From an uncultured Candidatus Saccharibacteria bacterium (lineage in GTDB: Bacteria > Patescibacteriota > Minisyncoccia > Phycocordibacterales > DATDWN01), in assembly GCA_964468795.1 (NCBI GenBank), contig CAYXWL010000001.1:232246-296245 (forward strand): 64,000 nucleotides of DNA. Reading direction: 5' to 3'. A program made the position numbers and the translations under genes. This document shows, one piece after another, positions 23,117 through 23,655 of this stretch (its first letter is position 1; each line of letters begins with the position of its first letter). Below the pieces are notes generated by a model. The model was not told the origin of the DNA, searched no databases, and worked only from the letters and a program-made list of their open reading frames with translations.

Positions 23117-23145
23117 AGTATATACTAAACGTATATTTTTGTCAA
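23117..23145 (-). promoter_or_regulatory. Consensus sigma70-type promoter (TTGACA-17-TATACT) firing leftward into the minus-strand small-gene/hammerhead array
   Basis: Reverse complement of 23117-23145 reads TTGACA aaaatatacgtttagta TATACT. Confidence 0.5.
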
Positions 23146-23280
23146 GCAGTTTTGACATTTTCTTTTTATAAATCTAAAAATAGCTATAAATATAGCCATT
23201 ATATAGAATATAGATTTAATTTAACCTGACTAAACTAGTATTAAATTGACATACTAAATAAATAATTTTGTTATTTATAT

Positions 23281-23309
23281 TTGACAAATAAAATGAATGG
23301 GTATATACT
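23281..23309 (+). promoter_or_regulatory. Consensus sigma70-type promoter (TTGACA-17-TATACT) driving the structured RNA
   Basis: ttgaca aataaaatgaatgggta tatact; predicted TSS ~23317. Confidence 0.5.
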
Positions 23310-23316
23310 TATAGGC

Positions 23317-23655
23317 AGACGAGTACCCAGGGTGTTCTTGGGGAAAGGAGGGTTCCATGCACGACTAGTGCGGGCTGGGGAACCGGGGGTTGTTAACCCC
23401 CGGTGTGGCCTCCAGTTTGGCTAGTCATAGATTGTGGAGGAAGCAAAAGTGGACGACTAGCACATAGGTGGTTCCAGTTCCATGCGTCCGACCACCAGAT
23501 AGTCAGAGGACGCGAGACAGATCATCTTCGTTCAGTTCAAGGTGGAAAATCCACCAGACAAAGAGAGAAGTGTGATTCCGTCAATCGTTCCCGGCGATTA
23601 GTCTTCGGGAACAACATGCCGTGGCGACAACTTACCGTCGCCACGGCATTTCTTA
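23317..23655 (+). ncRNA. Candidate ~335-nt structured non-coding RNA (identity unresolved; RNase P RNA and other classes considered)
   Basis: Perfect promoter upstream, strong terminator (AUGCCGUGGCGAC..GUCGCCACGGCAU + U-run) at 23616-23655, GC-rich with many hairpins and internal repeats, no plausible ORF (the only ATG after the GGAGG-like stretch gives M-H-D-stop). Confidence 0.45.

Follow-up and report, generated by a model that had tools for sequence, protein, structure and literature searches.

What kind of RNA occupies the gene-free gap beside a TrmBL2-like regulator gene in Paceibacteria of the candidate phyla radiation (CPR)? The question is raised by a 64,000-nucleotide (nt) stretch of contig CAYXWL010000001.1 (hereafter the window), in which the original prediction, made from the letters of the sequence, had placed a discrete, highly structured RNA of about 335 nt, without a credible open reading frame (ORF) and perhaps element-specific or guide-like in function. 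The window is cellular DNA of about 39% GC that encodes SecY, FtsH, RecG, PilB/PilC and G6PD. We find that the small RNA belongs to a real, previously uncatalogued and easily recognised family, and we are highly confident that this is a conserved RNA carrying Shine-Dalgarno (SD)-led mini-ORFs under translational selection.

A small RNA with three-codon reading frames

The small RNA and the elements that delimit it are as follows.

23145..23117, - strand: leftward sigma-70-type promoter, TTGACA-17-TATACT, found by scan and kept in close relatives; drives the hammerhead-punctuated operon
23281..23309, + strand: small-RNA promoter, TTGACA-17-TATACT, found by scan and kept in all close homologues
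23316..23659, + strand: small RNA, about 335 nt, with homologues found by nhmmer and by model R1
23345..23351, + strand: Shine-Dalgarno 1 (SD1), AAGGAGG, 5 nt ahead of the ATG
23357..23368, + strand: mini-ORF 1 (ORF1), ATG CAC GAC TAG (Met-His-Asp-stop)
23436..23441, + strand: Shine-Dalgarno 2, GGAGGA
23449..23460, + strand: mini-ORF 2 (ORF2), GTG GAC GAC TAG (Met-Asp-Asp-stop)
23616-23649, + strand: intrinsic terminator, 13-bp stem (9 G-C) with an 8-nt loop, followed by TTCTTATTTA
23653..24393, - strand: TrmB/TrmBL2-like putative DNA-binding regulator, convergent to the RNA, Pfam TrmB (winged-helix) E 6e-16

The start of the RNA was placed about 7 nt past the -10 box and its end at the terminator U-tract; across species its length ranges from 230 to 480 nt. 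No other promoter match in the scanned 11 kb is as good as the two in the AT-rich segment 23100-23310; this bears out the two back-to-back TTGACA-17-TATACT promoters that had been proposed. Each matches 11 of 12 consensus positions, a quality for which we estimate a chance expectation of about 0.15, and both are retained in orthologous loci. The strong intrinsic terminator expected at the end of the GC-rich RNA was also found. The U-tract extends into the end of the convergent regulator gene, overlapping its final codons and its stop, and a GC-rich hairpin with a U-tract stands at this position in every homologue. Positions 23315-23660 fold with a minimum free energy of -144.5 kcal/mol, compared with -110.2 +/- 6.0 kcal/mol in dinucleotide shuffles (z -5.7; 0 of 100 shuffles fold as well). 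Together the promoter scan, the terminator and the fold support a discrete, highly structured RNA running from promoter to terminator. As the reverse strand folds equally well (z -6.6), the strand is assigned by the promoter, the U-tract and the mini-ORFs, and not by folding energy.

The first reading of the sequence had seen an ATG after a GGAGG-like stretch with a stop two codons on. This is correct (AAGGAGG at 23345-23351 and the frame at 23357-23368), but its dismissal as no credible ORF is not: the mini-ORF is the defining feature of the family, with overwhelming statistical support, and a second copy at 23449-23460 had been overlooked. For comparison, 160 loci around TrmB relatives were fetched from species-representative genomes and metagenomes (individual loci are given below as L numbers). 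Several of the homologous contigs originate from wells at Hainich, a site for which metatranscriptomes have been published (PMC12960796). A search of the 650 nt that follow trmB finds the strict pattern SD-N3-11-(A/G/T)TG-NNN-GAY-stop in 74 of 119 distinct loci. These comprise 73 of the roughly 91 loci whose TrmB is at least 42% identical and 1 of the 28 more distant ones, at 36% identity. Counting both strands of all loci, there are 113 instances in the RNA regions and 2 in the other 1.43 Mb, so that a one-line sequence pattern picks out the RNA family with about thousand-fold enrichment. In the 64-kb window the pattern occurs twice only, both times in the small RNA.

The signature persists when the Asp and length requirements are dropped. 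Among SD-led ORFs of 1 to 9 codons, 117 in the RNA regions have exactly three codons, compared with 2-16 for every other length; outside these regions the lengths are evenly represented (38-65 ORFs each). Of the three-codon ORFs, 107 of the 117 inside the RNA regions have Asp as residue 3, compared with 1 of 51 outside. Residue 3 is Gly in a further 5 of the 117, at least 3 of which lie in three neighbouring loci with TrmB about 47% identical. Asp also stands at position 3 in 11 of 16 four-codon ORFs and in several of 5-7 codons (M-G-D-x...). Other parts of the frame vary. The strict set starts with ATG (108), GTG (4) or TTG (1), stops with TAG (64), TAA (33) or TGA (16), encodes Asp by GAC (97) or GAT (16), and has at least 14 different amino acids at residue 2. 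Free choice of start and stop codon, a fixed register and synonymous Asp codons would not be expected of a structural or protein-binding element, and we take this codon-level signature to indicate translation. Judged from these frames, the invariant of the family is the nascent chain fMet-X-Asp. ORF1 and ORF2 share the same stop codon in 22 of 39 RNAs, with about 16 expected; co-variation of the two stops was set aside as too weak and confounded by phylogeny.

Of the internal repeats that had been reported in the RNA, the pair ACGACUAGUGC / ACGACUAGCAC is real and corresponds to the ends of the two mini-ORFs. The pair GGUUCCAU / GGUUCCAG is unconserved in the homologues and is probably due to chance. 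The 3' domain contains a further, longer small ORF (MIPSIVPGD and similar), which was set aside; neither its sequence nor its length is conserved, and it overlaps a hairpin.

The RNA follows a host gene. All contigs with close TrmB orthologues have a gene-free gap of 1.2-1.6 kb after trmB, and nhmmer locates the RNA in this gap, on the convergent strand, in all close relatives. It is always convergent to the TrmBL2-like orthologue, whose protein identity ranges from 80% to about 45%, and is present in about 75 distinct Paceibacteria loci (Zambryski-, Taylor- and Paceibacterota metagenome-assembled genomes). The order is conserved: promoter, SD, start-X-Asp-stop, long hairpin, a second SD-start-X-Asp-stop, a variable 3' part, and a terminator abutting the trmB stop. 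The regulator has 155 homologues under the public names Zambryskibacteria, Paceibacterota or Minisyncoccia. Its AlphaFold model (pLDDT 86) has a C-terminal PLD-like domain and is closest in fold to TrmBL2 (5bpd, E 2e-11) and TrmB (3qph), both archaeal; on this model the neighbour is predicted to be a DNA-binding regulator.

The suggestion of an element-specific or guide-like RNA does not fit this distribution. The flanks of the RNA are a 58-amino-acid (aa) basic protein and the TrmB-like regulator, and no TnpB, IscB, IS110 or retron reverse transcriptase (RT) gene adjoins it. Relatives of the regulator and the RNA locus were not found on IMG/VR viral contigs, and a similarity search of phage genomes with the region gave no match. 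Homologous RNAs, which the first reading had proposed to seek next to similar elements, adjoin the TrmBL2-like gene in chromosomes. Rather than being tied to a mobile element, the RNA is a chromosomal feature of Paceibacteria, where it forms one conserved module with the regulator and the divergent operon.

The RNA is also not a member of a catalogued family. Rfam 15 gave no match over 23316-23655 at the gathering threshold. At E<=10, searched over 11 kb and over 1.3 kb with lax filters, overlaps with the RNA were at chance level only; the best was atoC, whose 21 bits (E 0.6) fall well short of its gathering score of 50, and RNase P, 6S and SRP were not among them. Fourteen homologous loci returned tRNAs alone. 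The failure of the first reading to match RNase P, SRP or 6S is thereby upheld at three sensitivities and in homologues, and extends to tmRNA, OLE, ROOL, GOLLD, HEARO and the rest of Rfam 15. RNase P RNA was considered by hand in view of a superficial resemblance (GGAAAG..CCAUG, ACAGA) and rejected, as there is neither a P4 pairing nor a model match. Rfam places the tmRNA of the window at 43147-43536, where it had been located before.

Structures around the mini-ORFs

Comparison of the homologues revealed the following structures.

23326..23342, + strand: 5' hairpin P1 (CCCAGG / CTTGGG), 82% paired, 4 pairs changed on both sides
23363..23426, + strand: P2 domain, from fold and covariation
23363-69 with 23420-26, + strand: P2 basal helix (A:B), GACTAGT with GCTAGTC
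23375-80 with 23410-15 and 23382-91 with 23395-404, + strand: P2 inner helices
23467..23513, + strand: H-type pseudoknot, from 7 nt past the ORF2 stop; S1 23467-72/23491-96, S2 23484-89/23508-13

P1 is missing in L091 and L015. The 5' strand of the P2 basal helix runs from the Asp codon of ORF1 through its stop to the next base, which places the end of the mini-ORF within the helix. Model R1 was built from 15 close-group sequences and used to re-align 17 clear members, which score 38-122 bits, together with 11 marginal ones. On this alignment, which is fitted to the model and thus biased towards structure, the basal helix with P2a and P2b is 82% paired, compared with 73% in column shuffles; 15 of 21 pairs show changes on both sides, 0 of 500 shuffles are as good, and slid controls reach 32-50%. 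The basal helix by itself (23363-69/23420-26) is 87% paired in the R1 alignment and has compensatory changes. In a plain MAFFT alignment of distant members, P2 is a 16-bp hairpin with compensatory changes in 16 of 16 pairs. R1 detects distant members only marginally (E 0.007-0.7), and the size of the family is therefore based on the sequence pattern and synteny.

The helix tracks the stop codon. Where TAG is replaced by TGA, segment B changes to match, from GCUAGUC to UCAGUC or CUUGGUC, and in L110 GAU is paired with AUC. L101 has a four-codon ORF1, and its helix shifts with the stop (CUACUAGG with CCUAGUAG) while Asp remains at codon 3. The helix moves and the Asp does not, which argues that the Asp is not maintained by the helix. 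A duplex test between the end of ORF1 and the inter-ORF region gave a mean z of -0.70 over 40 RNAs, which is significant in aggregate.

In the close group the pseudoknot begins 7-10 nt after the ORF2 stop. In a MAFFT alignment of 9 sequences 98% of its cells are paired, against 27-57% in slid controls, and S1 has 3 pairs with changes on both sides. Pairing predictions for 75 RNAs leave the ORF1 AUG most exposed (0.54-0.77 unpaired), and the third base of codon 2 and the Asp codon most paired (0.16-0.24 unpaired). The CCUCC strand of P2 was considered as an anti-SD sequence and rejected, since it is unconserved.

A possible ribosome-operated switch and its rivals

The mechanism that we favour, with a probability of roughly 0.45, is a ribosome-operated switch. 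The RNA is stand-alone and probably highly expressed, and its core would be one or usually two strong ribosome-binding sites, each with an fMet-X-Asp frame that normally has three codons. A ribosome covers about 12-15 nt beyond its A site. Given this footprint, a ribosome on ORF1 would open the P2 basal helix, and one on ORF2 would melt the S1 stem of the pseudoknot. GAY-stop forms the end of both ORFs, so that the single segment B (GCUAGUC) could pair with either, at 23455-61 in the case of ORF2. Translation would thus open or toggle structures and change the conformation of the RNA, and the conformation would set either RNA stability or the accessibility of the 3' domain. The switch would report translation status, whether the presence of ribosomes that are free or initiating or an event that depends on Asp at nascent position 3.

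The RNA is probably co-regulated with the divergent hammerhead operon, from which it is transcribed in the opposite direction. Conserved palindromes lie in the promoter region that the two share, and the TrmBL2-like regulator is the obvious candidate to bind these. The relevant elements lie in and between the two promoters.

23140..23157, no strand: palindrome TGTCAA-GCAGTT-TTGACA overlapping the leftward -35 box, a candidate operator from its sequence
23180..23199, no strand: conserved AT-rich element ATAGCTATAAATATAGCCAT with GGCTA/TAGCC half-sites, between both promoters
23246..23274, + strand: upstream tandem promoter-like site TTGACA-17-TGTTAT, seen in the sequence and kept in most close-group loci

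The palindrome is kept in the 13 close-group loci whose compared segment extends that far, with variation limited to at most one half-site substitution or to changes in the spacer; a regulator may bind here. The ATAGCY..ATAGCC element at 23180-99 is kept among close relatives, and distant loci have related half-sites, for example TATGGCTATAAATATAGCCTAA in L112. The site at 23246-23274 may function as a further promoter.

Several points weigh against the switch. About half of the RNAs lack a second strict mini-ORF. The A:B helix is missing from some members, with about one fifth of the 40 RNAs at z>0, and the pseudoknot is documented in the closest subgroup alone and is lost in L092. SD1 lies partly in predicted pairs. 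Apart from the terminator and purine-rich runs, no motif of the 3' domain is shared across the family. When the RNA is compared with the remainder of the window, complementarity and repeats amount to 10-13-mers at chance level, with no extended match elsewhere in the 64 kb, and so offer no target. The model does not explain the requirement for Asp, and the case that ribosomes translate the mini-ORFs is drawn from sequence statistics.

A larger claim, which we regard as possible and put forward tentatively, is that this is the first natural stand-alone minigene RNA, one that yields no functional protein and offers no seed for base pairing. An fMet-X-Asp-triggered ribosomal event (arrest, peptidyl-tRNA(Asp) drop-off or ribosome-driven refolding) would serve as a CPR read-out of translation or Asp-tRNA status and control a class-wide system not recognised before. 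That system would consist of the TrmBL2-like regulator, the small basic protein, and hypervariable GC-rich cassettes split by hammerheads and a new twister-like motif. Three observations may bear on the requirement for Asp. In kinetic work, peptidyl-tRNAs ending in Asp are slow donors. Early acidic residues in nascent chains are reported to destabilise ribosomes (PMC9718836; bioRxiv 10.1101/2021.02.02.429294), and the shortest minigenes are the most effective in sequestering the last tRNA (PMC2490762).

The closest known analogue of the small RNA is the three-codon upstream ORF (uORF) in the leader of vmlR. In Bacillus subtilis this uORF (MIN) lies in SL-1, and a ribosome held there blocks the base of the helix (PMC9226507). 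The peptide is largely free, with natural variants MDN, MDK and MRK, and ARE-ABCF leaders such as those of vmlR and lmo0919 have an SD-led uORF of exactly three codons at the base of a stem-loop (PMC9226507). The small RNA likewise has SD-led ORFs of about three codons (23345-23368 and 23436-23460) that overlap the base of a stem-loop, an overlap that is weaker or absent in some distant members. There are also clear differences. In vmlR the uORF belongs to a 5' leader that can form an antiterminator or a terminator ahead of a resistance gene read in the same direction, whereas the small RNA ends at a strong terminator and the next gene is convergent in the window and in every locus examined. 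The small RNA moreover usually has two mini-ORFs, requires Asp at position 3, and is found beside a TrmBL2-like gene in CPR Paceibacteria. It belongs with the ribosome-operated RNAs built on very short ORFs, but lacks two features of attenuators, a co-directional gene and a demonstrated antiterminator.

A rival reading takes the RNA as a cis attenuator, in which stalling on a mini-ORF would cause terminator read-through into the trmB-like gene. Antisense RNA or polymerase collision would then lower the regulator and de-repress the divergent operon. The geometry suits such a role, with a near-consensus promoter, a terminator that abuts the trmB stop in every locus and a U-tract that overlaps the last trmB codons. 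Precedent exists as well, since three-codon uORFs that control terminators are established for vmlR (PMC9226507) and uORFs that sense several ribosome inhibitors for toiL (PMC12121999). Inspection of 16 homologues, without a formal search, revealed no consistent antiterminator pairing with the 5' arm of the terminator. The terminators are long and GC-rich with good U-tracts, suggesting efficient termination, and 100-250 nt of variable sequence separates ORF2 from the terminator. We consider attenuation in cis unlikely.

Similarly doubtful is the idea that the RNA works as a toxic minigene or ribosome sponge. Massive translation of fMet-X-Asp would occupy ribosomes or release fMet-X-Asp-tRNA(Asp), deplete free tRNA(Asp) and so slow growth by curbing translation throughout the cell. 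Lambda bar and artificial toxic minigenes are SD-led ORFs of two to a few codons whose effect is a ribosome/tRNA event (peptidyl-tRNA drop-off and tRNA sequestration) and not a protein (PMC2490762). A strong promoter, strong SDs and three-codon ORFs are the most inhibitory features of artificial minigenes (PMC2490762), and all are seen here; the invariant residue would direct the effect to a single tRNA species, and very short nascent chains with acidic residues destabilise ribosomes (PMC9718836; bioRxiv 10.1101/2021.02.02.429294). The bar minigenes read AUG-AUA-stop, act in Pth-defective hosts and stand outside any conserved structured RNA, and toxicity in E. coli requires a defective peptidyl-tRNA hydrolase or extreme expression (PMC2490762). 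One Asp falls far short of the acidic runs known to destabilise ribosomes, and the elaborate conserved structures around the ORFs would be left unexplained.

Two further systems share features with the proposed switch. MgtL senses Mg2+ through destabilisation of the ribosome by an acidic or proline-rich N-terminus. MgtL-type mechanisms depend on acidic residues very early in the nascent chain (PMC9718836; bioRxiv 10.1101/2021.02.02.429294), and in toiL of the E. coli topAI-yjhQ operon a short ORF turns the state of translation into a conformational change of the RNA (PMC12121999). Both are cis-acting leaders of 8-17 codons, in contrast to the single Asp, three codons and lack of a cis target in the small RNA. 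The tmRNA is likewise a stable structured RNA with a short internal frame and flanking pseudoknots that works through the ribosome. It differs in having a tRNA-like domain, no SD or start codon, and recognition by Rfam, whereas the small RNA has canonical initiation signals and no tRNA-like end.

A peptide product appears very unlikely. The RNA would then be an mRNA for formyl-Met-X-Asp tripeptides, or for X-Asp dipeptides processed from them, that serve as signals or substrates. Asp3 is indeed conserved as an amino acid, through both GAC and GAT and whatever the stop codon, but residue 2 is nearly free (at least 14 amino acids), some ORFs have 1-4 extra residues, no conserved modifying or export genes lie nearby, and the structural embedding of the ORFs is not accounted for. 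Just as hard to credit is an untranslated structured RNA or protein sponge, in which the GGAGG...AUG...GAC-stop strings would be binding or structural elements that mimic ORFs. Fold energy and covariation do show that structure is under selection, and GAC and the stop lie in a helix. A structural element would not, however, retain any start (ATG, GTG, TTG) and any stop (TAG, TAA, TGA) in an exact three-codon register, with Asp kept at codon 3 when the ORF lengthens and the helix follows the stop, as in L101. To a guide or element-specific RNA (omega RNA, retron msr/msd, diversity-generating retroelement template or bridge RNA) we give almost no weight: the RNA lies between GC-rich arrays with a retroelement and a serine recombinase within 10 kb, but throughout a bacterial class it is syntenic with a host regulator, IMG/VR lacks the locus, none of the partner genes named above adjoins it, and the retroelement, described below, has its own template.

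The divergent operon, the GC-rich arrays and the retroelement

Downstream of the leftward promoter the order is a leader of about 370 nt, a gene for a 58-aa protein and a variable GC-rich array; a second promoter pair lies on the far side of the regulator gene.

22743..22567, - strand: gene at the head of the divergent operon, for a conserved basic protein of 58 aa (..ILARAGY..DG..K..KRES.VRAISTPCGGKPGYRRK), by tblastn and alignment
22031-85, 21314-68 and 20422-76, - strand: type III hammerhead matches (RF00008)
25225..24995, - strand: 76-aa ORF (MSKYEVWY...), start inferred from GGAGG-N4-ATG
25239..25284, no strand: second divergent promoter pair around the palindrome CTTGACAAGTCAAG, found by scan
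25256-25284, + strand: its rightward promoter, TTGACA-17-TAGGAT, driving the right-hand GC-rich array
25267-25239, - strand: its leftward promoter, TTGACT-17-TATATT, driving the 76-aa ORF
25257-25270, no strand: palindrome CTTGACAAGTCAAG, common to both promoters of the second pair

The 58-aa protein has tblastn matches in about 20 loci. It has no Pfam family and no PDB sequence match, and its similarity to a FitA-like ribbon-helix-helix (E 0.098) is not significant. The leader upstream of it (22744-23110, - strand) is GC-rich, about 80% identical at the nucleotide level in L097, L094, L014 and L092, and conserved as strongly as the mini-ORF RNA; it is likely to be another structured RNA or a regulatory leader. 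The second promoter pair and its shared palindrome are present as first described. The 76-aa ORF is the tail of a longer 124-aa frame in the ORF list and is 81% identical to a translated stretch in L009.

The original prediction had the leftward promoter fire into a hammerhead-punctuated gene array, and the three type III matches do lie downstream of it on the - strand. They score 41.5-44.4 bits against a gathering score of 48.5 (E 3e-7 to 2e-6), and their CUGAnGA...GAAAC cores are complete. Such cores (CUGAnGA-stem II-GAAAC), always on the operon strand, occur in about 50 loci with orthologous TrmB, with up to six per 4 kb, for example in L011 (6459-8373), L031 (5834-8479) and L075 (5859-7893); loci with TrmB paralogues have none. 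In the literature searched we found no paper that links hammerheads or non-coding RNAs to CPR/Parcubacteria.

Directly past the stop of the 58-aa gene, at 22490-22557 (- strand), is a motif of about 62 nt, CUGGGUGCGUCAACCUUCGGCCAAGGCACCGAAGUUG-[variable hairpin]-GUAAAAGCAUGGGUA. It recurs in L120 (two copies), L024, L117, L107, L102 and others, and is 88-90% identical even where TrmB is only about 52% identical. Its two hairpins show compensatory changes, and its unpaired stretches are long and invariant. A search with model R2 gave 15 strong copies (84-108 bits) and a weaker one of 38 bits, all on the operon strand, and the motif has no Rfam match. By eye it resembles the twister core. As it occupies the same type of intergenic slot as the hammerheads, we consider it a candidate new or variant self-cleaving ribozyme.

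Both arrays also share a repeated inter-gene module, consisting of UUCUUCUGGGCGA..UCGCCC, UCCCAUCAAAG..CUUUGAUGGGAC, a small hairpin, GUUCUUU and an SD. It is found at 18700-18750, 19440-19485, 20970-21020, 22389-22468, 25660-25750, 26517-26600 and 27150-27245, has no Rfam match and occupies the hammerhead position of other gaps. It could mark the boundary of a cassette, bind a protein or serve as a site of processing. Common to the two GC-rich arms are inverted segments of 84-95% complementarity (19439-19538 with 26169-26269, and 19384-19403 with 25766-25785), which include an identical SD/start context, TGCCCAAAGGAGGGC(C/T)CATG. These segments indicate that the arms are partly duplicated in mirror orientation.

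The array proteins are essentially without annotation in Pfam and PHROGs scans. A 182-aa sigma-r4-like array protein has only 2 homologues in 5.8 billion protein clusters and none in IMG/VR. This protein is nearly without homologues while the regulator is widespread, which suggests that the content of the arrays is hypervariable and that the neighbour of the RNA is an ordinary, conserved host gene.

Further to the right, a complete diversity-generating retroelement (DGR) occupies 30849-33719, with a recombinase and a tRNA on its flanks.

29426-30757, + strand: large serine recombinase (Resolvase, Recombinase, Zn_ribbon_recom), between the right-hand array and the DGR
30849-31784, - strand: GC-rich DGR target gene, with the variable region (VR) at about 30858-30972
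32114-32228, + strand: DGR template repeat (TR), 100 of 115 positions identical to the VR, 15 of 15 mismatches at template A
32278-32628, - strand: bAvd-like gene
32629-33231 and 33171-33719: DGR RT in two overlapping ORFs, a frameshift or an assembly error
33795-33883: tRNA with a long variable arm

The RT at 32629-33719 is the only one in the window. The target gene has a TTGACA-18-TATACT promoter and the GTTCTTTGA leader motif that the GC-rich arrays also carry. One short stretch of the small RNA, GAGGACGCGAGACaGAT (23506-23522), agrees at 16 of 17 nt with the complementary strand at the 3' end of the TR and VR (30862-30878 and 32208-32224), with a blastn E of 0.16. If real, the match could allow the RNA to pair with the TR transcript. 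It lies within stem 2 of the conserved pseudoknot and is for that reason probably due to chance. A DGR template shares about 100 nt with its variable region, with mismatches at template A, and the small RNA shows no such identity. A second DGR template or a DGR antisense RNA was accordingly rejected, as just these 16 of 17 nt are shared.

CPR/Patescibacteria make up a large share of bacterial diversity, yet hardly anything is known of their regulatory RNAs. The small RNA adds a new family whose conserved information is a three-codon frame with an obligatory Asp, and provides a natural system in which the long-discussed idea that very short ORFs act via the ribosome and not via the peptide becomes directly testable. 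The family also anchors a conserved locus in which predicted self-cleaving ribozymes punctuate hypervariable gene arrays, and this locus is promising for the discovery of new ribozyme classes and for the biology of the arrays themselves.

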